Shown here in pieces: positions 11,101 to 53,528 of a stretch of DNA of 64,000 nt. Below the pieces are notes generated by a model, which did no database searches, was not told the DNA's origin, and saw nothing but the letters and a program-made list of their open reading frames with translations. How positions within the stretch are numbered: position 1 is the stretch's first letter; every line of letters starts with the position of its first letter. Source of the DNA: an uncultured delta proteobacterium (GTDB lineage Bacteria; Desulfobacterota; Desulfobaccia; Desulfobaccales; 0-14-0-80-60-11); NCBI GenBank assembly GCA_963812015.1, contig CAWETI010000002.1, forward strand, positions 672,001 through 736,000, read 5' to 3'. The position numbers were made by a program, and so were the translations under genes.

Positions 11101-11105
11101 TTTCT

Positions 11106-17330: not shown

Positions 17331-17337
17331 GGTTCCT

Positions 17338-21945: not shown

Positions 21946-21956
21946 ACCGATAGAGG

Positions 21957-30173: not shown

Positions 30174-30176
30174 TGC

Positions 30177-30857: not shown

Positions 30858-30862
30858 ATTGA

Positions 30863-33931: not shown

Positions 33932-33935
33932 AATA

Positions 33936-34790
33936 TTATCCTAAATACTCGATAAGAGTTATGCGATCTGCCTTGATGGTGTCATCCCGAGGTGGTTGAA
34001 CCAGTTCGATGTTCCAGCCGCGACTATCTATAGGGCATTCAAGCCGGATGATTTTGTCCTCGTGTAGTTCCACCAGACAATGGCTTAGGCCCAAGGTACA
34101 CTGTTTATCTTCTGTCTTGTAGTTTTTGTATTTGTTGGCTTGTAGAAATATTTCACCACCATCCAATTCAGGACATACTTGCGCCAACCGAACCATGAAC
34201 TGATCTCCAAGAAGTTTCACTTTGTCACCAAAAATCGAAGGCAAAGCACGGTAAAGCCGTCCATAGGGATTAGCCTGAAACTGGTCATTAGGATCATACC
34301 AGCCCAAGCCTAAATAGCTAAGCCATCGATCTAAACCAGTGTGCTTATCACGATTAAAAGGGTTAGTCTGAGGTTCGTTATTAAAGACATCTTGGTTGAA
34401 GCGGCTAGCCCATTCTTCCCTACTAAAGTTAGAACGATCATACACTTCTTTATCCAAACCAAGGTAGTACGCATAAAACAGGGCTAAATAAGGTTCTATT
34501 TGGAGACTGGATAAAACCGCCTGGTCAACCGCCCTTAGGATGTTTTCTTTCGCTGGTTTCTTCTTCTCATATTCATTGCTTAGCTTAATGGAACTTTGCT
34601 TCTCTTCAACCAGACCAATTTGTAGTGCTGCACGTATCGTATCCTTTGCCGTACCCTGACTACCTCCCGACAAAGGGCTTGGTTGTAACAACTCATAACT
34701 ATCTTCTCGCTTTAATCCGTTTGAGTATTTATTTAATACGTCAAGCAATACCTCAAGTCTTACTGGCGTTGCTGGCCCATCGGTAAACAC
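33936..34790 (-). CDS. dpdG: DpdG
   Basis: FN..K, W..YLGLG and PELDGG; position between dpdF and dpdH. Confidence 0.8.
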   Translation of the reverse strand: MFTDGPATPVRLEVLLDVLNKYSNGLKREDSYELLQPSPLSGGSQGTAKDTIRAALQIGLVEEKQSSIKLSNEYEKKKPAKENILRAVDQAVLSSLQIEPYLALFYAYYLGLDKEVYDRSNFSREEWASRFNQDVFNNEPQTNPFNRDKHTGLDRWLSYLGLGWYDPNDQFQANPYGRLYRALPSIFGDKVKLLGDQFMVRLAQVCPELDGGEIFLQANKYKNYKTEDKQCTLGLSHCLVELHEDKIIRLECPIDSRGWNIELVQPPRDDTIKADRITLIEYLG

Positions 34791-34809
34791 AGTTTAAGTA
34801 CTCCCTTTT

Positions 34810-37245: not shown

Positions 37246-40200
37246 GAATTCCCCCGTTTATGGATAGAAACCCAGCGATATCTAATTCCAGATCCCAGTA
37301 GCCCAAGGCCTCCTTAAGTTGACATAAATCTTGTGCTTGATCCTCCCAACCATCGGGTTTGGCGAACTGGAGCTTTCTAATTTGCTCGTCTATACACTTA
37401 AGCTGCTCTTCAATTTTAGGAGTCAATATCTGATTATAGCGCTGATATACATGCTTCCGGGCCGTTTTTTCAATTATTCTGAGCAGTTCGTCCCAATTGG
37501 AATAGTGATCGGATAATAAGGCAGCCTTTTCATGGGTAAGATTTTTCCAAATCTTTCCTTTGTTTTGCTTATCAAAAGACCTTCGCAGCCTTAGTAAATC
37601 ACCGGGGGGCTCTTTCACGTTGCCATTTTCATGAACAAAGCAGTGTTCAATGCGTTCGGCAAATAAATAATCCAAGATATTTTGATATGCCGAAGTCTGA
37701 TCGGTAAATTGGCTGCTCGGTTTTACTCGATATGAAAATTCAAAGCCCCGCCACGCCGGTTGATCTGCTATGCATTCAACAGCATAAGTTCGCCCACTGG
37801 AGTCATCAGATAGAGAATGGCATATTGAATCAAAGAAATCATTTCCTATACTGAAAAACTCCAAGTCAGGGCGATTCTGCGCAATCTCACGACGAAACGT
37901 TCCTGTTCTTACTTTTTTATTGTCAAGCAAATTTAATTGAACTTGGCGCACATCTTCTGGATAAAACTCGATAACGCCTTCGAGGTAGTCAGCTTGCCTT
38001 GGGAACTGAATACTATTTTTGTCCGATATCATTTTAAAGTATTGGCAGAATCTAATTTCAAGATCTCGATCTAGCTCCTTATTAGATTGTACCCTACGAA
38101 ATTGTTCGGCCCTGGTTCGCTCATAGGAGGCTTCATCCATTTGGCTTTGGGACTCATCCCGCGCCCTTTCTTCTGTCATTCGCTCTTTGATATTTTTCGG
38201 CATGTCCCATAGGACCTGATCATCGTCGCTGAGGAGGTTTTGGGCAACGTCTAATTCGACATCTCTGAGAGCAAACTCAAGACCGCTTATTGATTGGCTG
38301 AAAACCCCTAATCCTTCAGATAAGCACTTTACCCAAGCCTCTTCTTTGCTGCCCTTTGCAATGACCAAACTAGACACCACCTCGGGCCGTTTCCGACCTA
38401 ACCGGTCTAGTCGCCCAATTCGTTGTTCGATTTTGGCAACTTGCCATGGTAGATCATAATGAATGAGTTCGGCGGCAAATTGAAAATTGCGACCCTCTCC
38501 TCCAGTTTCGTCACAAATTAATAACCAAGCTTGTTGATCAATCCTAAACCTTCTAACTTCTTGCTCCTTGAGATTGCGCTCGCGGATAGGGTCTTTATTC
38601 AGGCCGAAATAAAAACGAGCGATCGATTTTTGTCCAAAGTACTTAACTAATTGTTCGTCTAAAATGGAAGCCAATTTTGGATAGCCAGCGAAAATAATGA
38701 ACTTATCTTTAGGTTGAGTACGGTGCTTCTCTTCTATCATTGAGAATATTCTCTGAAGTCGAAGATTTTCAACTTCCCCCTGTCTTTCCCATGCCTCAAC
38801 GGAGCGAATTGCTTCCAGTAGAAGGTCTGGATTAAGCACTTCCCTGGCACTGCTCCAGCAATACTTCATTTGATTGTTCCATTCCGAATAGGATACTAGA
38901 TCGTGAAGTTCCCCATATTTCTCTTCTGACGCTCCAGTTAAGGTTTGCTCGCTGATTTTGAGGGTCTGCAATAATGTTTTAGGATGAACTGCTGCATGAA
39001 ACAACTCTTTGGTTAAGGGTAACAATATCTTTTCCGGCAATTTGGTCTGACGTAAGGACTGTAAAAATCTCTCTAGACTCACCACTGCATCTAACTCATA
39101 TTGATCGGGATTATAAAACAGTGTGTTTTGGACTCTTTTCAAGCGTTCAATTTGTTCGGATTCAATAAGCTTTTCCCTTCGGTTTCGAAGAATGCGGCGA
39201 TTGATACGATAGTAATCTGATATGTGATGGAGAACTTGATGAACTGTTTCAGCAAAAATTTCGCTTTTTGGATCAAGCTTAGCAATGGCCGTATTAAGGA
39301 ATTGATCATCATGCAATACAGGCAACTCGATTAGCGTTGCAAGTTGTTTAATGACTCTGTCAGGTTCCGAACCGCCCTCATGCAGTTCGGTCAACCGACG
39401 GTTAACCACACCGATTCTGCCTCCAATTTCTCTTTGACGCTCAAATAACATACTGAAGTGTTCGCGCGCTTGTACATCATTATGCCTATATTTCTTGGGT
39501 TCAAGTAGTGCGAGCAGATCATAATATTCATGGTCGCGATGTTGCGCTGGCAACGCGCTGAGTAATAATAGACCACGATCTTGCAGGGAAAGTTTCTTTG
39601 CCAGCTCATACAATGGTTTCACTCGCAGCAGGTTATGAACCTCATCGATCACTATTAGATCCCATTGCTTGTCCATCAATGCCTTCCGATGAATTAGCGC
39701 AGCATAAAAAGACAGGATAACTTGGACTGCTTGGCCCATCATAACCGTATTGATGCCACTTAGTTCAGGTAAGCGAAAGATGACTCCGCTAAACTTTGAG
39801 TACATCTCAGTGAACCACTGCTGCACCAGTGATCCGGGACAAATAATCAAGATGTTAGCCCGAGGGTTGCGCGCCAGGAGGTCATGGATGACAATTCCGG
39901 CTTCGATGGTCTTTCCCAGTCCCACTTCGTCGGCCAATAGATATCGCTGTTTGCTATCAAGAATAACAGTTCCTGCGACGTATGCTTGGTGGGGGTAAAG
40001 ATCGATACGGCTTGATAAGAGGCTTTTTACACCAACACACCGGCGAAGCAATGCATTGTATGTCTGGGCAAGAACTTCCCTCGTTTTGAAGATAGGATAT
40101 CCTTCTTGCTGGAGGGTGGCCAAAACCTCCAAGGGATCGCGAGGTTTTACCAATTTGATTGGGCTAAGTACTGTTTCGGGCAATTCGTCTTCCAGGCCGT

Positions 40201-40744
40201 TTTCAAATTCCACCCGATAGATATGTGGTGCGTGACCCTGACTCGGTTTTCGCTCTTGAATGATGCAGTTACCATTCTTTGTCTCGCAAGTGGTTCCAAT
40301 GGGAATATGGCTTCGGTGGAGGTAATTAGGGTTCAACTGCTTTTGTGATGGTGGAAAAAAGAAGTTTACAACTGCTACCCTACCTTCGAGATTCAATAAT
40401 CGCCCGAGGCCTAGACCTGAGTGTTTTACAATGCAACCGATCACTCCAGTTCCTTCTACCCGTGTCGATTTTGAGCGCTCTGTTGGACTTTCCTCCCCGC
40501 CTGAACCTTTCCGGACAGGATCGGTAAACTTCTCAATGGCATCAAACACTTCGGGGGAAATAATTGCATGCAGATCGTCGGCCAAACTAAAGACATGTAG
40601 GTTAACTGCACCCTGAAAGCATCTTAGATTCGGGTTGTAGGTCATAACTTGCATGACCCTTTGCTTCGCTTCGACAGGAATTGGCCCAATTAGATCCAAT
40701 GATTTGCAATTGCGGTTGAATTTCAATATGAGAGACAAGTTCAT
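37235..40744 (-). CDS. dpdE: SNF2/RapA-like helicase DpdE
   Basis: LYPHQ, LADEVGLGKT, DEVH, GEGRNFQ and EQRIGRLDR. Confidence 0.9.
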   Translation of the reverse strand: MNLSLILKFNRNCKSLDLIGPIPVEAKQRVMQVMTYNPNLRCFQGAVNLHVFSLADDLHAIISPEVFDAIEKFTDPVRKGSGGEESPTERSKSTRVEGTGVIGCIVKHSGLGLGRLLNLEGRVAVVNFFFPPSQKQLNPNYLHRSHIPIGTTCETKNGNCIIQERKPSQGHAPHIYRVEFENGLEDELPETVLSPIKLVKPRDPLEVLATLQQEGYPIFKTREVLAQTYNALLRRCVGVKSLLSSRIDLYPHQAYVAGTVILDSKQRYLLADEVGLGKTIEAGIVIHDLLARNPRANILIICPGSLVQQWFTEMYSKFSGVIFRLPELSGINTVMMGQAVQVILSFYAALIHRKALMDKQWDLIVIDEVHNLLRVKPLYELAKKLSLQDRGLLLLSALPAQHRDHEYYDLLALLEPKKYRHNDVQAREHFSMLFERQREIGGRIGVVNRRLTELHEGGSEPDRVIKQLATLIELPVLHDDQFLNTAIAKLDPKSEIFAETVHQVLHHISDYYRINRRILRNRREKLIESEQIERLKRVQNTLFYNPDQYELDAVVSLERFLQSLRQTKLPEKILLPLTKELFHAAVHPKTLLQTLKISEQTLTGASEEKYGELHDLVSYSEWNNQMKYCWSSAREVLNPDLLLEAIRSVEAWERQGEVENLRLQRIFSMIEEKHRTQPKDKFIIFAGYPKLASILDEQLVKYFGQKSIARFYFGLNKDPIRERNLKEQEVRRFRIDQQAWLLICDETGGEGRNFQFAAELIHYDLPWQVAKIEQRIGRLDRLGRKRPEVVSSLVIAKGSKEEAWVKCLSEGLGVFSQSISGLEFALRDVELDVAQNLLSDDDQVLWDMPKNIKERMTEERARDESQSQMDEASYERTRAEQFRRVQSNKELDRDLEIRFCQYFKMISDKNSIQFPRQADYLEGVIEFYPEDVRQVQLNLLDNKKVRTGTFRREIAQNRPDLEFFSIGNDFFDSICHSLSDDSSGRTYAVECIADQPAWRGFEFSYRVKPSSQFTDQTSAYQNILDYLFAERIEHCFVHENGNVKEPPGDLLRLRRSFDKQNKGKIWKNLTHEKAALLSDHYSNWDELLRIIEKTARKHVYQRYNQILTPKIEEQLKCIDEQIRKLQFAKPDGWEDQAQDLCQLKEALGYWDLELDIAGFLSINGGILGF

Positions 40745-41290
40745 TCCACCTTCACAGTTCACATTCTGCGAACAACTTAAGACCCTATCCCCTGATGGTC
40801 GGATCCCTTAAGGTCTTTATATGATATCTAAGGCAGCATGGTTGACAGTCTCACTGTCGATCGATCCTCCAAAGATTCCAGCGACAGTTTGCTGGTCCAG
40901 TTCGACTTATAAAGCCCGACTACCTAAAGTCGTAGACCGTCGATAGGGACCGATAGGCCACTCACGTCCATGCCAGCACGAAATAGATGCTTCTCATGTG
41001 CGCCTTTGCTGACAGTGATCAGAAACTCTCGGGCCTCCCAGGGTCATCTTTTTATAGATTTGTTAATGATTACGATCCTCCAATGATGATTCGAATAATA
41101 TAAGGCTATCCCTGAATTTAATCTAGAATTTCATTAAAATGGGGTAAGGGAACTGACCATATCCTTGGTGCTTCGATAGATGAGAAAAATCTGCGAGCCT
41201 TTCCCCTAATCAAGGTTGTTTTCTTAGAATAACTTTAGACGGGGGACCCTTAGTTTCCATTCAAACAAGACCACAACCAGGGTTAAAAGT

Positions 41291-41566
41291 TCAGAGGTCG
41301 ACCCGTTCCCGCAGTTCCTTCCCGACTTTGAAGAAGGGCAATTTCTTGCCTTCTACCTTGATGAGATCTCCGGTCTTGGGGTTTCGGCCTTTGTAGCCTT
41401 TGTAGCCTTTTACTTTGAAACTGCCAAAACCTCGAATTTCGATGCGCTCCTCATGTGCCAAGGCATCCGCGATATTCTCAAACAAGGCGTTGATGACCAT
41501 TTCAGCCTTTTTCAAAGTGATATTTTCAGCTTTGGCCAGGGCCTCGATGAGTTGGGACTTATTCAT
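41291..41566 (-). CDS. HU/IHF-beta family DNA-binding protein
   Basis: MNKSQLI, IEIRGFGSF and GRNPKTG; GGAG RBS. Confidence 0.95.
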   Translation of the reverse strand: MNKSQLIEALAKAENITLKKAEMVINALFENIADALAHEERIEIRGFGSFKVKGYKGYKGRNPKTGDLIKVEGKKLPFFKVGKELRERVDL

Positions 41567-42172
41567 GCCGCTATTCTCCTTGCCTGGTGTGGCCTGAGCC
41601 TGAGGGGCTTGACAGCGAAGGCACCCTTCACCCGTAATATCATTCATTTATACCTATATTCCCAAACGCACCTCATAGTCAACAAATCTCGGCGTGAGGG
41701 CAACCCAACGACCAAATGGTGGGGCGTTACCGGAAAGGATAGGGATCGGTCAGGGTTCGGGGATTGGGATATATATGAGGTTATGTCACGAAGAAGAGGA
41801 AATGGTTAAGACTCTTGGGGGAGTTTGGCCTCTGAAATTAATGGCCGGGACAATTTTTAATGGGGGCACTTGCCGGGGACGGTGAAATGGGCGAAAAACA
41901 ATTAACTTTAAGCTCCGAAGGATAAGCGCAGATAAACAAGGATAAGATAGAGGTTATCTTACTGAAATTAAAGTGTTTTTCAGATAATTTATGTTTTGGG
42001 ATGGGGATGTGGAGAAAATGCCGAAAAAGTATGAATGGTACGGGCGGGAGGAGGAAAAAAGTCAGAGGTTTATTGGTTGGTAAATACGAACTTATTTAAT
42101 ATAAAAGACAAATCAGGTTTATAAATTTTCAGCAGTAACTTTTATGGTAAAATTCTTCGACATTATAGGCTC

Positions 42173-42481
42173 TTAACCCTTATCAGCGTCTTCCTTTTCT
42201 TCCTCTGAAATAGCCTGGGCCAGCTTTTTCCCTGCATCGGTCAAGGTGACAGCCGTTCGATAATGGGTAAGTTTTTCCTGCCAGTATTCAATCAAGCCAC
42301 GCCAGAACAGGCGGGTTAGGCTTCTGGATAAGGCACTATGAGCTGCGGCATATCGACACTTATCAGAAACGGCCCCAGGCTGAACCTCCCATAGGGTTAA
42401 TAGGTTTTGGCATGTTACCAACTTTCCCTGCAGGACATACGTCAGAATCCGCTTTTGAACAAGCGATAGTCCCCGGCCCAT
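42173..42481 (-). CDS. Hypothetical winged-helix-like protein
   Basis: SRSLTRL..RGLI...LTDAG; GGAGG RBS. Confidence 0.6.
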   Translation of the reverse strand: MGRGLSLVQKRILTYVLQGKLVTCQNLLTLWEVQPGAVSDKCRYAAAHSALSRSLTRLFWRGLIEYWQEKLTHYRTAVTLTDAGKKLAQAISEEEKEDADKG

Positions 42482-42484
42482 AGG

Positions 42485-42823
42485 CTAACCTCCTATGCAC
42501 TTCGACAAAATCCTCAGTGCTTTTAGCTGTTGAAGCTCAGATTTGTTATTGTCGGCCATGTCTACAATAGCCTGGGCAATCTTCAGCTCTCGAGCTCCCG
42601 CACGGCGGAAAAAAGCTTTAGGGCTGGCGCTAAATTTATTCAAGATTGCCCTTCCGGTGTTGCAAAGGGCTTGGTCACTGGACCCTCGGTAGCCTGCAGC
42701 CCTGGCCGAATCTTTTATTGAAAACCCGGAAAAATATAGTTCCAAGAACGTGATCTGACGCGGCAAGAATTTGAAATCTTCTTTATCATTGTAGGACATT
42801 GGGTTACCCATGCCCAAATTCAT
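42485..42823 (-). CDS. Terminase small subunit-like HTH protein
   Basis: RQ..F.ELY.SG....SARAAGY and QLKAL.IL resemble TerS motifs. Confidence 0.55.
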   Translation of the reverse strand: MNLGMGNPMSYNDKEDFKFLPRQITFLELYFSGFSIKDSARAAGYRGSSDQALCNTGRAILNKFSASPKAFFRRAGARELKIAQAIVDMADNNKSELQQLKALRILSKCIGG

Positions 42824-43397
42824 CAGGTTCTTTCCCCGCCCCTATACACCGTTGCACATAGCTTATTTTTGCCAATATTTCCTGCAAGATAGATAGTTCT
42901 TGTTTAATGTAGAACTCCTTCAATTCCTGGGTATCCTTACACTCATACAGCAGGCAGCCGCGGGGGGTGCCCAGGCAGAACATATAGACATTGGCCTGGA
43001 TCAGATGCTCAGGTTTCGGCTCATAAGACCCATAGAATTGATTGGCATTCATAGATTTAATTTCCAGAATGCCGTCAATGCCGTTAATCTCTATGATGCC
43101 GTCAGCATGCCCCCTGATCTCATACTCCTCATGTTCCACGGCGACCTCGGTTTCCCGCAGAACCCCGATTTCTTGCAAATACCCCTGCAACCGGCTATGG
43201 ACAGCGTGGCCGTTATCGAAGATCCGGAGAACTCGAGGCTCAAACTCCTGGTTGGCATCGCCCTGGAGGTAATGATGGTACAGTTCCCGCGGTGATTTGT
43301 GTAGGCTGGAGGGGTGGAAGCACCTCCGAGGTCTTTCAGCCCTGGGCCTGGTTTGCAGATATTTGTCAATTGCCTGAATAATCATCACTTCCTCCAT
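42804..43397 (-). CDS. Cas4-like PD-(D/E)XK exonuclease
   Basis: HPSSL, GHAVH, GHADG, EIKS and Q...YM. Confidence 0.8.
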   Translation of the reverse strand: MEEVMIIQAIDKYLQTRPRAERPRRCFHPSSLHKSPRELYHHYLQGDANQEFEPRVLRIFDNGHAVHSRLQGYLQEIGVLRETEVAVEHEEYEIRGHADGIIEINGIDGILEIKSMNANQFYGSYEPKPEHLIQANVYMFCLGTPRGCLLYECKDTQELKEFYIKQELSILQEILAKISYVQRCIGAGKEPDEFGHG

Positions 43398-45529
43398 GTC
43401 TGATCAATCATAAGGTCCACTTCTACTGGGACCGTTTTTAAGAAATCCTTACCTGCCCGTATCATCTCGGCTTTGACGATCTCTTTCACGGCCGCCGCCT
43501 GATGCTCCGCGACCTCGATCACTATCTCATCATGAACCAGATTAATGATTTGGGCATCATATGGCCGCAAGGCCTCCATGAGATAATGGATGGCCTTCTT
43601 GAGGATATCCCCGCAAGTGCCCTGTATGGGAGTGTTGCGACCTTTCCGTTCCAGTGACTTTTGGCCTGAAAAGCTGTCTACGGGTGGGTAATAACGCTTC
43701 CGTCCAGACAGGGTCTCGGAATAATGTCGACGCACCGCCTGCATCCCTAAACGCTGCAGGGTGTCCTTGACCCGGGGGTAGGCCCGGAAGTAGGCATGGA
43801 TAAATTTCTCGGCTTGCTCCAAGCCAATACCCAACCGGGCAGCCAAGCCCTTGGCCGTCATCCCATAACACAGGCCAAAGTTAATGGTCTTGGCCACATT
43901 GCGTTGTTCCTTGGTTATCTCCTCAAGGGGTACACCAAACATCTCTGAAGCTGTCCGGGCGTGCAGGTCGTGACCATGGTGATATGCGTCAAGAAAAGCC
44001 GGATCCTGGGAATACTCGGCCAGGATCCGGAGTTCGATCTGTGAGTAGTCAGCAGTGATAATCTGGTACCCTGCCGGCGCCGTGAACAAATCCCTCCATT
44101 CCTGTTCCTTGGGGATCTGCTGGGCATTGGGTTTCTCACAGGTGAACCTCCCAGCCTCGGTGCCGGTCTGGTAAAAGTCTGGGTGGATTCTGCCGGTGTG
44201 CTTATTGATGTGATCTGGCAGAGGTTTGACGAAGGACGACAGCAGTTTTGATACCTTACGGTGCTCCACCAGAGTCCTGGCGAGGGGATGGTCTATCTTT
44301 GATAGAACTCCAATGCCGGTACTTTCCAGGCTGATTCCCAGGTTGGCAAATATCTCCTTCACCTGGGCAGGTGAGTTAAAGTTAACCTTGGACATGTCTC
44401 CGAAAAGGGTAGGCTCCTTTTCCCCTGCCAGTTCATGTAACTCCGTTTCCAGTTGAGCCAACCTTGCCTCAAGGGTCTTTTTTAGGATCCTGAGTTTGCC
44501 TAAATCTAGCAGCATCCCAGCCAACTCCATGTCGGCCACGGCTGGGGCAATAGCGAATTCCAAAAGAGCCGCGTCCGCCAGACCCGCTTGGGCCAGTTTA
44601 TCAGCCTGCCGCCTAAAGATCGGCTCCAGAACCTTCACATCATTCACGGCATAGTCAAGCTGTGAGCGGCTGATCTCTTTGTCAGAGAATGAATTCTGCT
44701 GAGCCTTGTCCAACTCCAGCCCAAGATACTTTTCCGCCAAAGCCTTTAAGGAAAGGTCACCTTTATCCGACAAGCCGGCGGTCAGCAGCGACTCGGCCAG
44801 ATAGGTGTCGAAGAGGTTCCTGATGGTTAGGTCAGGGAACAGGTGCCGCTTGAGGAACTTGATGTCGAATTTGAGATTGTGGCCTATTTTTAGAATCGCC
44901 TGATCCTCCAGGATGCGCCGGAGAATGCTGAAGCCGAGCTGATCTGGGCCAGCGCTTTTCACATTGATGACGAAAACCTTTTCCCCGGCCATGATCTGCA
45001 CCAGTACCAACTCGGCTGAATAAGGGTCCAGGCCGGTAGTTTCAGTGTCAATGAAGACCTTGCTGACAGAATTTTCCTTGACGTATAAGTCAATTAATTC
45101 AAGTTCTTCGCCGGCCTGGATATGAAAGACTTCCGGGCTGGTGTCTTGATGGGGGGATTCGGAAGTGATGAACGTTCCATCCCAGCGTTTAGATTCTATA
45201 ACCGCCTTGGCCTGATCGGACGATTCCAGGATCAAGGGCATAATGATGGGCAGTTCCTCCGGTATAAAGACCAGGTCGCCCTTCTCACGCCACTTTTTTA
45301 TAGCCGCTCCCTCATCTGGCGCCAGCCAGACATTATCCCCCAGAAGGTCTTGATATTCTAAAGAAACACCCATCCTCACAATTTCTGTAAGTTGACCGGC
45401 AAAGGCCCGGTCAAGAATTGATTTCTTGAAGGCATCGTCGGACTGAGGAGTCGCCGCCACCCCCCCAACCTCCGGCATGACCTCTCCTGCGACCTCATGA
45501 CTGGTGGATGTAGTTCTCAAGACAAGCAT
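43385..45529 (-). CDS. Family A DNA polymerase with 3'-5' exonuclease and no 5'-3' exonuclease
   Basis: DTETTGLD, HNLKFD and YA.ND; polymerase motifs DYSQIELR, R..AK..NFG..YG and VHDE. Confidence 0.95.
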   Translation of the reverse strand: MLVLRTTSTSHEVAGEVMPEVGGVAATPQSDDAFKKSILDRAFAGQLTEIVRMGVSLEYQDLLGDNVWLAPDEGAAIKKWREKGDLVFIPEELPIIMPLILESSDQAKAVIESKRWDGTFITSESPHQDTSPEVFHIQAGEELELIDLYVKENSVSKVFIDTETTGLDPYSAELVLVQIMAGEKVFVINVKSAGPDQLGFSILRRILEDQAILKIGHNLKFDIKFLKRHLFPDLTIRNLFDTYLAESLLTAGLSDKGDLSLKALAEKYLGLELDKAQQNSFSDKEISRSQLDYAVNDVKVLEPIFRRQADKLAQAGLADAALLEFAIAPAVADMELAGMLLDLGKLRILKKTLEARLAQLETELHELAGEKEPTLFGDMSKVNFNSPAQVKEIFANLGISLESTGIGVLSKIDHPLARTLVEHRKVSKLLSSFVKPLPDHINKHTGRIHPDFYQTGTEAGRFTCEKPNAQQIPKEQEWRDLFTAPAGYQIITADYSQIELRILAEYSQDPAFLDAYHHGHDLHARTASEMFGVPLEEITKEQRNVAKTINFGLCYGMTAKGLAARLGIGLEQAEKFIHAYFRAYPRVKDTLQRLGMQAVRRHYSETLSGRKRYYPPVDSFSGQKSLERKGRNTPIQGTCGDILKKAIHYLMEALRPYDAQIINLVHDEIVIEVAEHQAAAVKEIVKAEMIRAGKDFLKTVPVEVDLMIDQTWRK

Positions 45530-45543
45530 GGATTTCTCCTCTT

Positions 45544-45932
45544 AATATGCGACATACGACATATATACGACAAAAGGCCTGTCGTATTTCTCATGTAGAT
45601 GTATCCTTCAAAATCTCATTTACGACACACACGACAGGGGGGAAGAAGAAGCACACTTTTTTTCCATAAACCTCATGGATATACGACATACATACGACAA
45701 ACACTCCAATGTAGATAACATACTAAATTACCTAATTTTATTGCCCATATACGACAAACCTAAAGGTACTAAGAGCAAGAATTTTTATCAGTCCAATTCT
45801 CTGGGCTTTCAGAAAAAAACGTGTCTTCTACCTTTCCCGTGTCGTATGTCGTAAATGAACATATATTCAATGATTACCGCATGTTATTATACGACATTGG
45901 TAATGTCGTATATATGTCGTATGTCGTATATT
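45544..45932. repeat. Putative replication origin: about 15 (T)ACGACA repeats bounded by a 29-bp inverted repeat
   Basis: 45544-45572 and 45904-45932 are reverse complements with one mismatch; AT-rich centre. Confidence 0.8.
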
Positions 45933-45937
45933 CTTCA

Positions 45938-48610
45938 TTACCCATCATCGATGATCTCAATCTGCTCCCCAGAGATGGGGTGCACAAATTGGATCCCCTT
46001 GCAAAGTTCAGGGAAATTGTTGATGAGCGCTTCACCAGCCGGTAGCATTGACTTTTTAGAGAAAATTGGGTTGCTGGCGGTTTCCTCCACTGGTTTGAAA
46101 AACACCTGCCGCCCACGCTTCTTTTTGTCGAGCAGCCCGTTTTCCACTGCTGGTTCCAGCCACCTCTCCACGGTGCGCCGGGTTTTGCCCGCCTTATTCA
46201 CCAACTCGGTCATGGACACCATGGCGTCCATTTCGTTCTCGCTGGTGTAAGCAGCATCTTTCCCCGCATAAATCTCCCGGACCATCTGCACCAGCATCTC
46301 GGTTTTCGGTGAGGTCCCCTCCACCGTCTCGATCAAGGTGCCTTCCAGCAGCTCCTTGACCATGAGGTAATCAACCACCGAGGCCTCCAGGTATTCCTGG
46401 CCATCCTTGCGGACTATCTTCCTCTGGTATTGGTGCAGCAGCGCACAAACCTCGATGGCCATCAGAATGCGTTCAAAGTCCCGGCGGATCCGCACCTTCT
46501 TGACCGGCATGTGCTGGGCTAACCACTTGCTGTAAGGGATGATTACGGGATACGGCTTCAAAACCCGCTGGATGTTCGTCCACCGGTCTATCTCAGCCTG
46601 CGGCAGCCCGGGATTTTCCTTGGCATACTTGTCACCGATTAATTTGATGATGGCCTGGGTTTGACCCTCCGACTCGTCGATGAACAGGGAGAAGATTCTG
46701 GTTTCGTTCTCATCAAATATCTGGGGTTGCGTGGTGGTGGTGATGAAGCCCGTGGGGCCTTCTTTGTCGATGACGACAGTTTCGTATTTACCGTCCACTT
46801 TGGCCGTATACTCATACCGCAGGCGGCCTTCGCTCATCAGGGTGCGGACCAGGTAGTTGATCTCGTCGCTCTGACCTGCGAATTCAAAAAATATAATGAA
46901 TTTATGTCGGAAATCTCTGTCCGAGTAGATGAGGGCCTTATCCGACATGCTGCTGTATTCATAGAAAAATTCTGCGGGGAATACTTTTAAGCACATTTTT
47001 AGAAGCCAGCTTTTCCCGGATGAAGAATCTGCCTTGATGGCCAGGCTGATGAGATTGTCTGCCAACAGACGGGATGTCAGGGCTATCAGCACCAGCCTGA
47101 TGTTCCGCTCCTCTCCCACCACCCCGAGCCGGCCAATAAATTTCCCGTAGTCATAGAGGAGGGACGGGCTCTTTAACAGTTCAATGGCTTTCTCCACCTC
47201 CTCCTTGGAGAGCTGCCGCTCCAGCTTGCCGTCCTTGGGCAGTTCAATGATTTGCTTACGGTACGCCAGGAGACTGCCGATATCTGCATTCTTCAGCTTC
47301 AGGGCCTTTTTCCTAGCCTCCAGGAATTTCTTCGCGGTGCCGGCATCCACACCCGACAAACAGCTGCCGGTGAATTTCTTCAACTGCAGGAAATTCTTGA
47401 ACCCATCCTCCCCCAGGCACAGGTCTTGAAATAACCCTTCCAGGTCCTCCTCCAGTAGGTATGCAAACCGGATAGGTGAAGGTTTCCGCAGTTTCCCGGT
47501 ACCTGGGTCATGGGAGGGCGTGAGGTTGCAGTTGCACAACTCAGCCTGGAAATCCTGGAAGTGCTCCATCACCACCTTCCGCAGAGCCTCACAGCCGTAT
47601 GGGGCCGCCTTCCCTTGGTTCCTTTGGAGATAGTAACGGGTCTTCTCCTCGGAAAAGTCCGGGCAACCGCCGATGATCTGCCGGATAAAGGCCAGATCTT
47701 GGTCCAGGTCACCCAGGGCCAGGGAGAAGGAACTCAGAGCCAGGCGGATCCCATGGGGGAGGTGATTCCCTGCCTTGCCTTTCTGTTTCAGGAACTCCAT
47801 CAGGTAGCAACGCTCAAAGATGCGGTCGCCATTGAGTGGAATTCCAGTGAGTGCACTTGGGCCTGGGGCTATCTCTGCGATTTCCACGGGTATGGCAAGA
47901 AAGTCCTCACGCAGCTTCTCATCAGGGCTGACAAGGAATGAATCAGTTACAAATGCAGATAAACGTTGAGGACGGTCAGCGTAATGAGGCTTATTAAAAA
48001 TCTTGGTGCCGAAAACCTTGACAAGCCTGCGCATGTCGAAGACGGAAGGATCTATCTTCACGCCTTCGGCTGCGAACTTCTCAGAGAACCTGCTCCCCCA
48101 CTTTTTGAGGCGGGCCTGGGCTTCTTTACGATTACTGGCATCAATAGATATCTCCGGGATCGGCATAAAGACCCAGAAGCCATTCCCTGAATCGGCAAGA
48201 ATTGCCTCCCCGTACCCCAAGCCGTTACTCATGGTGCGTTGAATCTCCACAGCAATCTCAAAAACTCGTCCTTTTTCGGCATCAGTAGCATTTAATTTCG
48301 CCGGCGCCATGCTATCCAGGTCGGCATATAAAAACCTTAGCCCGACAATGTCCTCATTAGTAGCTGATCTTGAACTTCCCAGGAGTTTCTGGTCCCTAGG
48401 CTGCAGGCCAGCGTAACACGTGAATCCCTGATGGTTATAGGCGACCACGCTCTCAATGAACGGCTGTTTATCACCCATAGCAAAATACTTGGTGGCCTGA
48501 GCTCCGCTAGGTTTTCTGAAGTATGTTTCAATAACTCCGGTATCGGTTTGAACAAGGTCAAAAAATCTGCCAATATCGGTCAGTTGCTTGCGTGTAATTT
48601 GCACTTCCAT
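45938..48610 (-). CDS. AEP primase + PriL-like Fe-S domain + AAA+ helicase-like fusion
   Basis: YADLD and DSGNG; C..HLPH..R..PDFSEEKTRY..GC..CNC; ADSSSGKS P-loop and ENETR; C-terminal HTH. Confidence 0.75.
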   Translation of the reverse strand: MEVQITRKQLTDIGRFFDLVQTDTGVIETYFRKPSGAQATKYFAMGDKQPFIESVVAYNHQGFTCYAGLQPRDQKLLGSSRSATNEDIVGLRFLYADLDSMAPAKLNATDAEKGRVFEIAVEIQRTMSNGLGYGEAILADSGNGFWVFMPIPEISIDASNRKEAQARLKKWGSRFSEKFAAEGVKIDPSVFDMRRLVKVFGTKIFNKPHYADRPQRLSAFVTDSFLVSPDEKLREDFLAIPVEIAEIAPGPSALTGIPLNGDRIFERCYLMEFLKQKGKAGNHLPHGIRLALSSFSLALGDLDQDLAFIRQIIGGCPDFSEEKTRYYLQRNQGKAAPYGCEALRKVVMEHFQDFQAELCNCNLTPSHDPGTGKLRKPSPIRFAYLLEEDLEGLFQDLCLGEDGFKNFLQLKKFTGSCLSGVDAGTAKKFLEARKKALKLKNADIGSLLAYRKQIIELPKDGKLERQLSKEEVEKAIELLKSPSLLYDYGKFIGRLGVVGEERNIRLVLIALTSRLLADNLISLAIKADSSSGKSWLLKMCLKVFPAEFFYEYSSMSDKALIYSDRDFRHKFIIFFEFAGQSDEINYLVRTLMSEGRLRYEYTAKVDGKYETVVIDKEGPTGFITTTTQPQIFDENETRIFSLFIDESEGQTQAIIKLIGDKYAKENPGLPQAEIDRWTNIQRVLKPYPVIIPYSKWLAQHMPVKKVRIRRDFERILMAIEVCALLHQYQRKIVRKDGQEYLEASVVDYLMVKELLEGTLIETVEGTSPKTEMLVQMVREIYAGKDAAYTSENEMDAMVSMTELVNKAGKTRRTVERWLEPAVENGLLDKKKRGRQVFFKPVEETASNPIFSKKSMLPAGEALINNFPELCKGIQFVHPISGEQIEIIDDG

Positions 48611-48614
48611 CTTT

Positions 48615-49982
48615 TTATCCGTAAGGGACTTCTTCTATTTGATAACCACCATACGCCTGTTGTTTCCGGCTAAAATATTGAGACTCCGCTAATCCGACCA
48701 AAGAATCTACGAAGTCGTAGACAATGGCGTCTTTTTTCCCTTCATGGGTCCGCAGAATTCTCCCGACCTGCTGGCTGACTTTATTGCTGCTTCGAGCCGG
48801 ACACGTCAGGAACAGGCGGTCCAGCCTTTGGATGTCTAAGCCCTCATCTGCAAGTTTGGTGGCGAACAACACGCTGATTTTGCCCGTCGTCATAGCCTCG
48901 ATGGCCTGCCCCCGCTTAGATTTGCTGTCCGTTCCGGTAATCACTGCTGCCTTACCATCCTGGAACATCTTCATAAACAGCCGGTAGAGCTCCTTTATAT
49001 GGTTGATTCGTTCGCTCAGCACCAGGCAAGAATGACCCTCCCAGGCCTCGGCGATGACATGGTTAATGATCAAATTATTCCGTTCCCGGTCCCTCGTGAG
49101 CATAGCCAACAGGTGTCCATAGTCGCGACATTCGGGAAGGTAACAGTTAGTTTGAATTACTCTGATGGTGGGTTTCAGGATATGCCCATTGCTGAACAAC
49201 TCCTCCTGCCCCACCGTTGCTTGGATGGGTCCCATCACGGCATGGAGAATAAAACTCAAAGCATCCCGGCGCTCTGGCGTGGCAGTTAGTCCATAGCGAT
49301 ACAGTGCCGGGAACTGGCTAATCAGGGTCTGGAAGGTGGTGGCTGGGCAATGGTGGCACTCATCTAAGAGTACCAACCCAAATTGGTTGACGAATTGGGA
49401 GCCCAGAGGCTTGGTGAGTGACTGGACCATGCCTATGGTGATCGGTTTGATATCGAACCTATCGGCGCTGATCACCCCCCTTTCCACATCGGTGAAGGTT
49501 CTGACTCTTTCATCCCACTGTTGCAGTAAATCCTTGGTATGAACGAGGATCAGTGAGCGTTGGGCTTGTCTTAAAATTAGTTCGATCCCCATGACCGTTT
49601 TCCCCGCACCAGATGGTGCGTGTAGTAGACCCTGAAACTTCACCGACAGTTGATTTACCGGCTCGACTTGATAATCTTTGAGGGTGATTTGTGATGCGCT
49701 GAACTCAGCAGTTCTGGTGACTGTTCTGTCCTCGATTTGCAGGAAAGGGTTGTTGACGAACAAATTAGCGATAAGGCCACGAGGTAAGATCAGCGAGGAA
49801 CCAGTTTCTTCAACCAGGCAGATGGTTTTAGGGATTCCGAAGGTACTGAAACCAAGACGCTCAGCTTCGGCATGGCGTGGATTTGGATAAGTAAATCGCT
49901 TCTGCAATGCGGCCACGTTCAGGTACGGATTATCAGATTTACATATCTCTAAATAGTTGTGGATAATGATTTTGTTCACCAT
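48615..49982 (-). CDS. SF2 DEAD/DEAH helicase
   Basis: LKDYQ, PSGAGKT, DECHH, TATP.R, EGLD and QQVGRILR. Confidence 0.92.
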   Translation of the reverse strand: MVNKIIIHNYLEICKSDNPYLNVAALQKRFTYPNPRHAEAERLGFSTFGIPKTICLVEETGSSLILPRGLIANLFVNNPFLQIEDRTVTRTAEFSASQITLKDYQVEPVNQLSVKFQGLLHAPSGAGKTVMGIELILRQAQRSLILVHTKDLLQQWDERVRTFTDVERGVISADRFDIKPITIGMVQSLTKPLGSQFVNQFGLVLLDECHHCPATTFQTLISQFPALYRYGLTATPERRDALSFILHAVMGPIQATVGQEELFSNGHILKPTIRVIQTNCYLPECRDYGHLLAMLTRDRERNNLIINHVIAEAWEGHSCLVLSERINHIKELYRLFMKMFQDGKAAVITGTDSKSKRGQAIEAMTTGKISVLFATKLADEGLDIQRLDRLFLTCPARSSNKVSQQVGRILRTHEGKKDAIVYDFVDSLVGLAESQYFSRKQQAYGGYQIEEVPYG

Positions 49983-49998
49983 TGGTCGTCCTAAAGTT

Positions 49999-50024
49999 GC
50001 GGGGGAAGTCGGTGCTTCCCCCGC
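49999..50024 (-). terminator. GC-rich hairpin (possible terminator or processing stem)
   Basis: GCGGGGGAAG-N6-CTTCCCCCGC; weak U tract. Confidence 0.4.
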
Positions 50025-50033
50025 TATCGGTAA

Positions 50034-50645
50034 TTACGCTGTCCACGGGTTTCCAGCGTTCGCCGGCTGAGTTGCTGATACCGTCTCGACAGCAGCCTGG
50101 ATGATTGTCGGATCCGGGTCCGAATCGGTTGGCGGCATCCCGATGACGATGGTGAATACCGCCACGCCGTAGCGCCCTCCCTGTTTACTCGTGCGCGGTA
50201 CCACGCTAATTTTCACCCAGACATCTTCCGGTCTTAGGCCTGAATTCTTCAAATGCCGAAAGAAACTCCCAGCGGCGCTGGCGGAAGTTGGGGACAATGA
50301 CAAGATCGTCGTCTTCTCAGGGTCCTTTATGGCCAGTTCCATCCGGGGCTGATACCCCTCAGGATAGGGCTGACGGGTGAGCGGCATCTTCGACAAGACA
50401 ACGCCCTCAAACTTGCCCAAGTAGGTCTCGATCCCGACGATTCGTCCAGTAATGAACGGGACGGTGTGATCGAACGCTTTGTAATGAATGCCAATTTCTG
50501 TGATCGATGCGAAGTACCCCTCTGGGGCAACGCTCGCCGCCGCCTCAAGATTCTCGTCGGAGATTTTGAGGGTAACCAAATCTTTTCTTTCTTCCTTGAT
50601 GGCCGGAATGTTTGTCGTTACCTTCTTATCATCCTTATCATCCAT
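50034..50645 (-). CDS. Hypothetical protein (possible ssDNA-binding protein)
   Basis: AGGAG RBS; beta-rich core, low-complexity tail ending NPW; position in the replication operon. Confidence 0.6.
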   Translation of the reverse strand: MDDKDDKKVTTNIPAIKEERKDLVTLKISDENLEAAASVAPEGYFASITEIGIHYKAFDHTVPFITGRIVGIETYLGKFEGVVLSKMPLTRQPYPEGYQPRMELAIKDPEKTTILSLSPTSASAAGSFFRHLKNSGLRPEDVWVKISVVPRTSKQGGRYGVAVFTIVIGMPPTDSDPDPTIIQAAVETVSATQPANAGNPWTA

Positions 50646-50746
50646 GCTTCTTCTCCTTTTTCAGTTGGTTTTCCAGGTCGTTTTTGGGTTGCGCTTCTTC
50701 GTCATAGGCCGTTGATTTGATGTTCTTTTCGGGTTTATTTCCGGCA

Positions 50747-50965
50747 TCACCTCCGTTGGTCGCTGTTCTGGTGGGGTCCTTGCTCTTTCAGACCCTGAAG
50801 CCAAGCCTCCAGGTCACTTCGCAGCCAACCGGAGGCTCTGCCTCCAGCTCCAAGCTTCACTCGACGTGGGAAAGTGCCGAGCCGTTCTCTTCGCCAAAGC
50901 GAAGTCCTGCTCAGGCCCACAAGCTTAATCACTTCCTTTTCTCGCAATATCATTGATAGTTCCAT
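50747..50965 (-). CDS. alpA: AlpA family regulator/excisionase
   Basis: LREKEV...GLSRTSLWR....GTFP..VKLG...GW..SDLEAW. Confidence 0.92.
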   Translation of the reverse strand: MELSMILREKEVIKLVGLSRTSLWRRERLGTFPRRVKLGAGGRASGWLRSDLEAWLQGLKEQGPHQNSDQRR

Positions 50966-51165
50966 AGCAAACCCCTCTTGTTTCTGCTAATTGCTCAACA
51001 TGGTCAAATTGAACCATAAAGTTGCGTGCTTTGCGAGAATAATAGCAAGGAAGGTTACTTAAGCGAAAGGGAGGAGTTGAATAGTAAGAAAATACTTAAG
51101 TTAGGAGAATTTGTGATTTGCGTTACAAGGCGGGGCAAAAAAGGTTACTTAGTTCAAAGTGTTAA

Positions 51166-51984
51166 TTATATCATATCCCATGGGTAATCAGGATCAATAT
51201 TCCGCAGTCTCTTCTTAAGGGCTTGGTAGGATATTTTTTTGGAAAGGAATCCTTCTTCAACCAATTTGACAATAACTTGATTCCAGGGGGCGAAATTTTT
51301 CCTGGTTCTCTTTCTTTTCTCCTCGGTGTGCGTTTTGCTTTGCTGTTTTGTATTCTTGAGCGTTTCAGCAGTCACTCGCATTCTATTTCGCAACTGTTCT
51401 TGCAACTCTGCCAATGTATAGGGAATTTCTGGATTAGATGAATTTTCCCGAACCTTCATTTCAGCTAAATAATTCAGGGGGGATTCTTTGGCTAGGGCAG
51501 AACCTGTGATAACCCCACGAAGCTCCAGGACCCTCATCATAAGGGTTATATCTTTGGGGCGCTTCATGCCAGTCTCAATACCCACTATCTTGGTTTCTCG
51601 CAAGACTTCGCGGGCATCGTGCCTTCGGAGCCGTAACATCCGAATCCATTCGACGAAATGGTTCCTAACCCAATGGGGAAGCTCCGGGTGAAAATCGGCG
51701 AACCGAGGTAAAACCTCTGCATATTCTCCGGTGGAATCGAATACAAGGCTGAAGCCGGGCCGCCGAGTTTCGGCAGGACGGCTCCTCAACAGGCCGGACC
51801 TGAGGGCTTTAACGGACAGTTCGTCAATCCTCTTTTGGATCTCATAAAATTCAGGGACCTGAATACCAGTTTTGGGGTCCCCTGGCGGGAGGGCTCTGAA
51901 TTTTTCATTTTCTGCCTTGATTTCCTCGAGAAGGCTCCGTTGTCTTGGAGTAATTGGAGGAAAATCAGGGGTGGAATTTTTCAT
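51166..51984 (-). CDS. Hypothetical protein (candidate island regulator)
   Basis: 272-aa ORF between integrase and alpA; GGAG RBS. Confidence 0.65.
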   Translation of the reverse strand: MKNSTPDFPPITPRQRSLLEEIKAENEKFRALPPGDPKTGIQVPEFYEIQKRIDELSVKALRSGLLRSRPAETRRPGFSLVFDSTGEYAEVLPRFADFHPELPHWVRNHFVEWIRMLRLRRHDAREVLRETKIVGIETGMKRPKDITLMMRVLELRGVITGSALAKESPLNYLAEMKVRENSSNPEIPYTLAELQEQLRNRMRVTAETLKNTKQQSKTHTEEKRKRTRKNFAPWNQVIVKLVEEGFLSKKISYQALKKRLRNIDPDYPWDMI

Positions 51985-52077
51985 CTTGACGACTCCGGTT
52001 CTGCCCTGGATTCCAGGGAAAGCGGCCCAGGATTGCCACCTTGTCGGGAGCGACCTTATCCATGGGAATCTTCTTAT

Positions 52078-53298
52078 TTAAACTCCACGAACCATCGGGA
52101 TAACATTAGTTTCCGCGCCTTTGATTATGCCCTTGAGCTTGCACCCCCAGGCTTCCAGGGCTTGCCTTTTCTCCCGATCGTAACTATGGCGGTCATAAAC
52201 GGCGGTTACGCCCTTCTCCACATGATTCAGAATCTTGCTCACCACCAACCGGGAAATGCCCATGCCGGTCATATGGCTGGCCGCGCTGCGCCGCAGGTCG
52301 TGAGGAACAAAGCTGAACCCCAGGGCCTCCAGGCCGGGGCGCCTCAGGGCATGGTCGATGGCCTCCGGGGTGATGTGCCTGTCAGTCTGGGGTGAGGGAA
52401 AAATCCAAGGCGAGTTGCCGGTGATGTTCTTCGCCGCTTGGAGTAACTCCATCGCCAGGTGAGAGAGGGGTACTCGGTGGGCCATCTTATTCTTGGCCTT
52501 CTCAGGCGGGATCGTCCACCACCTGTCAGTCAAATCAATTTCATCCCAGGCCGCCGATACAATTTCGGCCTTTCTCTGGCCGGTTACCAGTTGCAGCTTG
52601 AGAGCCAGCTTTGTTCCCTTTGACATCATTTTCGCCCCTTCTATGGCATGCCAAAGGGCGCGGATTTCATCCGTAGTCAACACCCGGTCCCGCCGCTGCT
52701 CCGGAGCCGGGGCCCTGACCGCCAGGCAGGGGGAGACGGCTACAATATCCCGGCTCACGGCGAAGTTGAACATCTTACGAATAGTCGCTAAGGTTCGGTT
52801 CGCCATGATGCTGGCGCCCCGGTCAACTATGTCATCAAGCAGCCCGATAACATCCCGCCGGGTGATGTCTTTGGCCTTGCGATGACCCCACGCCGGCAAA
52901 ACGTCCTTTTGCAAGATGCGGGCGTCTTCCCGCCAGGAGCGCTTGCGGGGCTTTGCCCACTTCTCCAAGTATTCCTCGGCCAGGGCAGCCGCGGTGGGGG
53001 CGTCACGTTCTTCCTTACGTTCGTTAATGGCTTTAGCTCCAGGATTAATTCCATGACGAAGCACCTTCCAGGCATCTGCATGGGCTTCATGGGCGTCGGC
53101 CAGGGTCAGCTCCGGATATGTCCCCAAAGTCATCCACCTGACTTTACCATCGAATCGGTATTTGAAGATGAAGGTCTTGACTCCATTTGGCGTCACCCGT
53201 ACTCCCAAACCACGCTCTCCCCACTCTGTGTATCGTTTGTCCTTACCCTTCAGGTTCTTAATTTGAAAGTCGGTTAGTTTCTTTTTCCCATTTTTCAT
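52078..53298 (-). CDS. P4-like tyrosine integrase with arm-binding domain
   Basis: GLGVRV..G.K.F...YR...LG.YP, TGQRKAE, HDLRR, ILNH and VYDR. Confidence 0.95.
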   Translation of the reverse strand: MKNGKKKLTDFQIKNLKGKDKRYTEWGERGLGVRVTPNGVKTFIFKYRFDGKVRWMTLGTYPELTLADAHEAHADAWKVLRHGINPGAKAINERKEERDAPTAAALAEEYLEKWAKPRKRSWREDARILQKDVLPAWGHRKAKDITRRDVIGLLDDIVDRGASIMANRTLATIRKMFNFAVSRDIVAVSPCLAVRAPAPEQRRDRVLTTDEIRALWHAIEGAKMMSKGTKLALKLQLVTGQRKAEIVSAAWDEIDLTDRWWTIPPEKAKNKMAHRVPLSHLAMELLQAAKNITGNSPWIFPSPQTDRHITPEAIDHALRRPGLEALGFSFVPHDLRRSAASHMTGMGISRLVVSKILNHVEKGVTAVYDRHSYDREKRQALEAWGCKLKGIIKGAETNVIPMVRGV

Positions 53299-53316
53299 CT
53301 CAGCACCGCCTTTGGG

Positions 53317-53340
53317 CTGGGCTACCATCTGGGCTACCAT
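53317..53340. repeat. Tandem 12-bp repeat CTGGGCTACCAT x2 (putative integrase arm sites)
   Basis: Exact tandem duplication between the att core and the integrase start. Confidence 0.55.
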
Positions 53341-53479
53341 TTTGAGGGTGGCAATAGGTGAAGCATAAAGGGGTCTCTTGAAACAAGAAATACCAGGATC
53401 AATTAGGATTGTCAATGAATTAAAGAAGTACGAGGAGATATTCTGGAGAGATAAAAATCAAAAAGAAACGTCACTTGTC

Positions 53480-53528
53480 CTGATTCGTAATCAGCAGGCC
53501 CGGGGTTCGACCCCCCGTGCCGGCTCCA
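53480..53528 (+). repeat. att site: 3' part of tRNA-Thr(CGT), not a complete tRNA
   Basis: CTGA-TTCGTAA-TCAG anticodon arm, CGGGG-TTCGACC-CCCCG T arm and CCA end; 5' acceptor strand and D arm are missing. Confidence 0.9.

Follow-up and report, generated by a model that had tools for sequence, protein, structure and literature searches.

An integrated island at a tRNA gene of an uncultured delta proteobacterium carries its own family A polymerase module and defence cargo and may be a phage satellite

The DNA analysed here, called the window throughout, is a stretch of 64,000 nucleotides from an uncultured delta proteobacterium (assembly GCA_963812015.1, contig CAWETI010000002.1, hereafter C2, positions 672001-736000 of a 3.96-Mb genome). 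It holds all but the left end of an integrated island of 57,527 bp with its own replication module, including a family A DNA polymerase (PolA). On balance, we favour the reading that this island is a tRNA-integrated satellite similar to the phage-inducible chromosomal islands (PICIs) and to VEIMEs (virion-encapsidated integrative mobile elements), which has acquired a replisome of phage type and carries defence cargo. The limits of the island are set by an exact repeat, 49 bp in length, which corresponds to the 3' part of tRNA-Thr(CGT). The right copy of this attachment (att) core lies at 53480..53528 on the plus strand, just upstream of the integrase gene, and the left copy lies within the intact tRNA-Thr(CGT) at C2:668002-668050, 4 kb left of the window. 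Two GGGCTACCA repeats are located inside the right end (53319..53339, plus strand) and the same word is found twice just inside the left end (C2 668097, 668109); pairs inside both ends are expected for integrase arm sites, which these repeats probably are. The GC content is 0.33-0.53 in the island and about 0.58-0.63 in the flanking host genes.

Adjacent to the right att core, an earlier note, made from the letters of the window alone, had described eleven backbone items on one strand, and all of them are indeed present at these positions, on the minus strand and with no internal stop. The tyrosine integrase (52078..53415; PF00589/PF13356) has arm-binding, central and catalytic domains and is directed into the island. 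It is followed by a 272-aa open reading frame (ORF) with no family match (51166..51984), whose slot is taken in relatives by an unrelated ORF of similar size, by an AlpA-like excisionase/regulator of 72 aa (50747..50965; phrog_66, E 4e-11), and by a 203-aa OB-fold protein resembling single-stranded DNA-binding proteins (SSB; 50034..50645), with a disordered C-terminal tail and a conserved terminal Trp. From the gene of the 455-aa superfamily 2 (SF2) helicase onward (48615..49982; XPB/RadD-like, ResIII/Helicase_C) the genes are tightly packed and comprise a primase-helicase of 890 aa (45938..48610), then, behind a putative origin (45544..45932), the 714-aa PolA (43385..45529; PF00476, E 2e-102, and PF01612), and a Cas4/RecB-like PD-(D/E)XK nuclease of 197 aa (42804..43397; phrog_1706, E 1e-36), which has no C-terminal Cys cluster and whose gene overlaps the polA stop. 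The last two are a 112-aa protein (42485..42823) with an N-terminal helix-turn-helix (HTH) akin to that of SF6-type small terminases (TerS), and a 102-aa probable DNA-binding protein (42173..42481), of which four paralogs are found close to further satellite-like elements in the genome. The labels that had been given to the integrase, AlpA, SF2 helicase, primase-helicase, PolA and Cas4-like nuclease are supported by family or fold, and that of the origin by its iterons, whereas those of the SSB-like, TerS-like and winged-HTH proteins are weaker. The model of the SSB-like protein has an OB-like fold at Z 5-6.6, with SSB and RPA at a weak Z of about 5, and a Foldseek search with it gave no match at E < 0.001; its top VIA match, an integrase fused to a recombination directionality factor (Z 7.8), was rejected as inside the range of chance folds. 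For the TerS-like family profile, three small-terminase structures rank first (E 2e-4 to 9e-4, positions 5-46), and the protein itself has an Atlas score of 0.94 and no Pfam match. The 102-aa protein reaches a best family E of 0.04, which is not significant.

The primase-helicase consists of an archaeo-eukaryotic primase (AEP) domain (residues 7-249), a PriL-like part, an MCM-like AAA+ domain (460-766) and a winged helix (approximately 764-852). In its predicted structure (mean pLDDT 91), the AEP domain matches RepB' with Z 15.5 (root-mean-square deviation 3.1, 182 residues aligned) and the AAA+ domain matches MCM with Z 22.6 (2.7, 281 aligned), the C-terminal winged helix being matched as well. 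The PriL-like part gave weak profile matches and was not matched in the fold search with the whole model; its cysteines C268, C340, C359 and C361 are invariant in eight of eight aligned homologs. In six of eight primase homologs the same primase is followed by a different helicase, which by its motifs we take to be DUF927/Cch-like, and phmmer found no match of the primase in the PDB. The putative origin comprises 13 TACGACA iterons in opposed sets, which together make up a 44-bp imperfect inverted repeat. All 13 copies occur within 411 bp after the primase-helicase gene, and every other 400-bp stretch in the genome has two or fewer. The origin of the Staphylococcus aureus pathogenicity islands (SaPIs) likewise consists of inverted iterons after the replicase gene. 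Element-specific repeat words precede polA in six of nine relatives, and in the relative L194 the iteron origin is tandemly duplicated (L194:7836-8600; 306 bp, 74% alike). Compared with L194, dN/dS is 0.18 for polA, 0.20 for the primase and 0.17 for cas4; the values for the ssb, terS-like and int genes rest on near-saturated synonymous sites, and those of the SF2 gene are saturated. Judged by its sequence, the backbone is intact, conserved and probably functional.

PolA keeps the residues D161/E163, D222, Y293/D297, D494, K547, Y555 and D667/E668, so that the acidic residues of both exonuclease and polymerase are intact, and has no 5'-3' exonuclease domain; the host has a separate Pol I-like gene. 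Four small candidate domains were compared with the first 135 aa of PolA, and none matched. A tree of 79 rows unites the element PolAs in a single clade (SH-aLRT 99, by a quick method), which is sister to Methanoperedens enzymes, with those of WWE3 and Acidobacteria and of four large phage contigs nearby. PolAs of WWE3, Acidobacteria and Methanomicrobia type define the subfamilies Hot Spring 1 and 2, the latter listed with "unknown role, no known partners" (PMC10201439). The element PolAs may be placed with Hot Spring 1/2 as a whole by the taxa they group with, in a tree built without the reference sequences of that paper. The thumb tip of these PolAs is about 13 residues longer than that of the host Pol I, and at this tip a Q-x-x-[LMI]-[FLW] word is found in 37 of 80 clade members and 36 of 40 outer PolAs, versus about 5% of random windows; as the sequences are related, no significance test is attached to these counts. 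The outer PolAs with this word belong to cellular WWE3, Acidobacteria and Cyanobacteria-related lineages (P0079-P0120; L039-L113). The QxxLF-type word may be regarded as a putative clamp-binding-like motif of Hot Spring-type PolAs. The thumb tip is also the site where T7 polymerase binds thioredoxin. Among the family A groups, only actinobacterial PolA2 is named as clamp-binding in section 15 of a 2026 survey, with the motif in another domain (PMC12926913). A literature search, with most subscription journals outside it, found no report of such a clamp motif at the thumb tip of these enzymes.

The module is not confined to the window. About 75 protein clusters are more than 49% identical to PolA, the next step down being at about 44%. 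PolA loci of at least 50% identity number at least five in genomes and at least 14 in metagenomes, with none in viral sequences (best 80 loci each). All clade counts are lower bounds, since the PolA scans missed clade members that were later found via Cas4. Five of the 19 clade loci represent one element (at least 98% identical), which leaves 15 distinct ones. A Cas4-like gene follows PolA in 16 of the 19, and among the ten loci with more than 5 kb upstream, nine have a primase homolog, eight the SF2 helicase, nine an integrase in the locus and eight an SSB-like ORF (five by tblastn, three by position). L194, examined like L200 and L201 within its locus only, equals the window gene by gene save for the ORF after the integrase. 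The earlier note had suggested looking for the backbone at tRNAs of other genomes, and three further att-bounded islands were found: L197 (13.6 kb, tRNA-Gly, 52-bp repeat), L035 (14.7 kb, tRNA-Phe, 57-bp repeat, frameshifted assembly) and L042 (21.3 kb, tRNA-Leu). Together with the window island the module thus resides at four different tRNAs, with integrases that are 22-25% alike where compared. Defence cargo is also found in relatives, namely GmrSD and a methylase in L194 and two ThsB-TIR genes and a patatin in L042. Named records with a clade PolA are mostly "delta proteobacteria", and in the genomes searched the clade was present in the seed genome only (one of 83 in the host's class, one of 401 in the phylum, one of 301 in the class of G093); many of these genomes are fragmented, and the figures describe rarity among those searched. 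A PolA match of 42% in the host's class (L033) falls outside the clade. Single-sequence IMG/VR scans with primase and PolA found no close relative, the nearest viral PolA among the 80 IMG/VR loci listed being 42% identical and those of cultured phages less than 37%. The IMG/VR scan with Cas4 gave eight loci, four of them at 62-65% identity, and the SF2 scan had no clade PolA in the 80 loci listed.

Neither virion nor conjugation genes accompany the module. As the earlier note had observed for the window, no capsid, portal, tail, relaxase or type IV secretion genes were found among the island ORFs scanned. Between the att sites these ORFs also include no large terminase (TerL), and the sole match of this kind was a weak holin match (E 3e-5) of a YLATT cargo gene; no search for an oriT was made. 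PF03237, PF04466, PF03135 and PF02534, the last two for VirB4 and the coupling protein, have no match anywhere in the genome, whose single large terminase above the cut-off lies on contig C3, outside the island. The part of the island left of the window, which the note had marked for inspection, contains an M41-like peptidase gene and an HNH-HIT gene only, so that virion or conjugation genes left of the window, one of the refutations named in the note, are not what is found there. Nor did the ORFs of L197 match a virion family, and four large-terminase families gave no match in the genomes behind L042 and L035.

Among known systems the PICIs are closest in plan. Of the five parts that make up the core of a PICI, four are integrase, AlpA, primase and TerS (PMC10085698), and in PICIs and SaPIs an integrase, an AlpA-type regulator, a primase-replicase and a TerS-like gene stand in the same order, together with cargo and without structural genes. 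The integrase with att sites, the regulator of AlpA type and the primase-replicase were found in the island, the last by its AEP and MCM folds, not by SatelliteFinder profiles; for the capsid-morphogenesis gene, which is optional in type B, no capsid family match occurred among the island ORFs scanned. In contrast to PICIs, the island adds an SSB-like protein, the SF2 helicase, PolA and the Cas4-like nuclease, its TerS-like protein stays below the Pfam cut-off, and it measures 57.5 kb versus about 9.5 kb. The polymerases annotated as COG0749 are, we assume, of family A. In VEIMEs, a COG0749 DNA polymerase occurs in 117 elements, 40% of module 6 (PMC9618062 Datasets S5/S6), and these elements share with the island the integrative, capsid-less state, tyrosine integrase, AlpA, primase/helicase and, for the TerS of VEIMEs, a TerS-like candidate (PMC9618062). 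However, VEIMEs are marine, at most 16.8 kb long and were found as concatemers in virions (PMC9618062); L197 and L035 are inside the VEIME size range and the window island is outside. The Pyroviruses (Thermocrinis Octopus Spring virus) encode a PolA with a DUF927-type primase/helicase, SF2 helicase, Cas4-RecB-like nuclease and sliding clamp (PMC7689252), and the island resembles them in SF2 helicase, Cas4-like nuclease, primase/helicase and a proofreading PolA without 5' nuclease. Since Pyroviruses pair such a PolA with the same helicase and nuclease types, the replication module is phage-like in kind; yet in Pyroviruses it is accompanied by genes for a capsid, a portal, the two terminase subunits and a clamp (PMC7689252), whereas here the module resides in an integrated capsid-less island.

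The likeness to other integrative elements is more partial. The CcPol-MP-Cch2 system of the staphylococcal cassette chromosomes (SCC, SCCmec), treated together with the PolA-SSB primases, also combines an integrative island with a family A polymerase, an OB-fold SSB and a helicase, but the exonuclease domain of CcPol is truncated and the enzyme serves as primase, and SCC elements use serine recombinases in Bacillota (PMC10061031); the island has a separate AEP primase, intact exonuclease motifs and a tyrosine integrase. Pipolins are tRNA-integrated as well and combine a polymerase of their own with a small core and with defence genes as cargo, but their polymerase is a primer-independent PolB, their sizes centre on about 20 kb and they share no replication gene with the family A island (PMC11551731). 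PrimPol-PV1 cryptic elements (PMC5862659), tycheposons (10.1101/2020.12.28.424599) and phage-inducible chromosomal minimalist islands (PICMI; PMC10803314) are tRNA-integrated, without phage or conjugation genes, and have an AEP fused to swappable MCM, DUF927 or DUF3987 helicases; the accessible parts of their descriptions contain no dedicated proofreading PolA module. By the features that define these groups, the island is neither a pipolin nor an SCC, a prophage or an integrative and conjugative element. A literature search that left most subscription journals outside returned no description of this island family. Nevertheless, the possibly undescribed class proposed in the earlier note is not upheld, because a family A polymerase already occurs in capsid-less elements (the 117 VEIMEs and SCCmec CcPol), the module is known from Pyrovirus, and the integrase, AlpA, primase and TerS-like candidate correspond to four of the five PICI core parts.

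If the island is such a satellite, its cycle could run as follows. Upon induction, AlpA and the integrase would excise a circle at the 49-bp core. The winged helix of the primase-helicase would bind the iterons and the MCM ring would unwind the DNA, much as SaPI Rep binds its origin and unwinds. The AEP-PriL part would lay primers, which the proofreading PolA would elongate, probably tethered by the host beta-clamp via the thumb-tip motif, while the OB-fold protein would cover the single-stranded DNA. The Cas4-like nuclease and the SF2 helicase could provide primer removal or recombination-dependent restart, functions missing from PolA. Finally, the TerS-like protein would divert the terminase of a helper phage, small members being packed as concatemers and the phage-sized window copy as about one genome, and the host may retain the island for its Dpd system.

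Several observations weigh against this reading. The TerS similarity is limited to about 40 residues of the N-terminal HTH, PF03592 is matched by nine of the 81 proteins of the family, at E 0.006 at best, and no TerS was identified in the bounded L197, L035 and L042. At 57.5 kb the island greatly exceeds the satellite averages of 9.5-18 kb (PMC10803314), and the thumb-tip insertion of its PolA has the degenerate motif EPTLF. In the host, no phage with a portal or capsid that could act as helper was identified, and no attP junction, circle, empty site or amplification was found among the contigs of four runs, which carry no copy number. L034 has a clade PolA without the rest of the module. Two relatives encode a large terminase, L309 behind a clade PolA, Cas4 and an HTH gene (TerL phrog_2, E 1e-26), and L307 behind Cas4 and TerS on a contig that starts inside Cas4 (TerL phrog_15, E 4e-181).

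These two terminases lead to the explanation that survives best beside the satellite, which we consider rather unlikely: the module would be the early gene region belonging to a family of temperate phages, and the islands prophages without morphogenesis genes that took up cargo later, their replication genes being idle or keeping the circle. Such an origin would agree with the same module type in the Pyrovirus phages (PMC7689252), with RuvC-like resolvases in L200 and L201, with the weak holin match mentioned above and with one L035 ORF that weakly matches a scaffold protein (E 1e-4 over 54 aa). Some short relatives may indeed be prophages; the contigs of L307 and L309 stop short of where a portal could be ruled out. 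However, TerL alone is not proof of a phage in this lineage, because the host itself has an element, L395 (C3:1452953-1472272), with a lambda-type TerL and TerS and no portal or capsid match among the 13 ORFs scanned. L395 also encodes an integrase, excisionase, methylase, ParB, primase, helicase and AIPR-like/restriction cargo, and is either a satellite equipped with a complete terminase or a prophage in decay. Four bounded islands at four tRNAs, with diverged integrases and without portal or capsid remnant, speak against prophage relics, as do the distance of PolA from the viral enzymes listed and the intact window backbone with dN/dS of about 0.2. The one-off decayed prophage that the earlier note had named as its own refutation can be set aside, given that the backbone is intact and the module recurs in other genomes.

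It is unlikely, and ranked below the prophage origin, that the island is an integrative defence element which replicates by itself in the manner of a pipolin, SCCmec or a cargo tycheposon, needs no helper packaging and spreads by generalised transduction, vesicles or uptake. Replication would then stabilise or amplify the excised circle, and the TerS-like gene would be an HTH regulator or a relic. The lack of an identified TerS in three of the four bounded members fits this explanation, and so does the span of sizes from 13.6 to 57.5 kb. Moreover, the majority of tycheposons are described without packaging genes (10.1101/2020.12.28.424599), pipolins are defence reservoirs (PMC11551731), and for SCC the purpose of the replication genes is given as not known (PMC10061031). 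On the other hand, AlpA is phage-induced in PICMI (PMC10803314), and two unrelated TerS types share the slot after Cas4, the SF6-like one in the window and a lambda Nu1-like one (phrog_57) in L200, L204, L306 and L307, an arrangement that hints at packaging being selected for. An accidental mosaic or assembly artefact, for which 5.7% genome contamination and three frameshifted cargo genes might be cited, is very improbable and largely refuted by the exact att pair, the full synteny with L194 and a contig from an unrelated groundwater run (X9 record 29) that covers polA, origin and primase at about 88% identity; run X1, nearly identical and possibly the source sample, was left out of the counts.

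Within the satellite reading a further proposal can be made, tentatively and as a possibility only: the islands might form a distinct, giant-capable satellite family with a full replisome of its own, made up of an AEP-PriL primase in archaeal style, an MCM ring, an SSB and the proofreading PolA and independent of host DnaB, DnaG and Pol III and of helper replication genes, which borrows only the host beta-clamp through the thumb-tip QxxLF and transports as much as 45 kb of defence genes inside helper capsids of full size. If this were true, the thumb-tip motif would point to the first partner for the orphan Hot Spring PolA subfamilies.

The cargo of the island has a length of 44.7 kb, in agreement with the "over 40 kb of defence cargo" noted earlier, but only about 29 kb of it is recognisable as defence or defence-linked, partly with frameshifts. 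Behind a gene for an HU/IHF-family protein (41291..41647, minus strand) lies a Dpd cluster for 7-deazaguanine modification and restriction of about 22 kb (18589..40762) in the order dpdC, dpdB, dpdA, dpdB, dpdD (frameshifted), dpdK, dpdJ, an ORF in dpdI position, dpdH, dpdG, dpdF and dpdE. Ten of eleven Dpd genes match PADLOC models, with no match for dpdI and with dpdD split. Genes for preQ0 synthesis (queD, an ORF, a queE-like radical SAM gene, queC and a frameshifted folE2; 11753..15031, plus strand, 3.3 kb) and a UvrD-like helicase in two pieces with a PD-(D/E)XK nuclease (15028..18456, plus strand, 3.4 kb) follow. The frameshifts in dpdD, uvrD and folE2 reflect decay or assembly error. 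The remaining cargo (489..11696) comprises SIR2-like, 766-aa, DUF6946, YLATT membrane protein, GDSL-like, DUF2779 nuclease, DUF5655 and short Xer-like recombinase genes. At 489-3880 the SIR2-like gene overlaps the gene of the 766-aa protein, which had no family match in four libraries, and both are a candidate defence pair. A 37-bp stretch inside dpdE (39900-39936) attracts matches from many unrelated, loose-ended contigs, and a promoter scan gave a result at chance level.

Many clade PolAs (L042, L197, L200, L201, L204, L230) start with a TubC_N-like domain (E 6e-5 in L042), and in host elements that lack PolA a small gene with weak similarity to this domain comes after the primase (C2:314998-315324), which suggests that PolA may have been recruited by fusion to such a gene. 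In P0054 and P0065, PolA is fused to DUF3987. A sister-clade Methanoperedens PolA has a weak primase homolog upstream (L097:7320-11704), and these PolAs may be on mobile elements as well; among the non-clade cellular PolA loci in the matches listed, only L097 had another backbone gene. The host contains at least five further satellite-like elements without PolA (C2:311516-334886, C3:1640032-1654738, C3:713019-720684, C3:1132583-1137464, C3:2150836-2156589), with integrase, excisionase, primase-helicase and often the same small DNA-binding gene, and for about ten host tRNAs a partial copy lies at a distance of 6-63 kb. Just beyond the right att core lies a transposase fragment (53576-53917), of which C3 holds a copy at 82%. 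A further tRNA-Thr att-like copy at C2:810713-810837, 143 kb from the tRNA and with flanks resembling both island ends, is a scar or a secondary site. A joint near att in run X9 was rejected as an attP junction, as it is accounted for by the arm repeats at both ends.

The island suggests how a Dpd cluster of 22 kb, like other defence systems of large size, could travel in bacteria without conjugation. It would mark an intermediate between phage and satellite, in which selection maintains the replication module of a phage in the absence of virion genes. The thumb-tip motif would predict clamp-stimulated processivity in a family A subfamily that is listed with unknown role. With its 13.6 kb, L197 would be a compact model for the replication of an integrative island by its own PolA, a question that SCCmec and pipolins raise as well.

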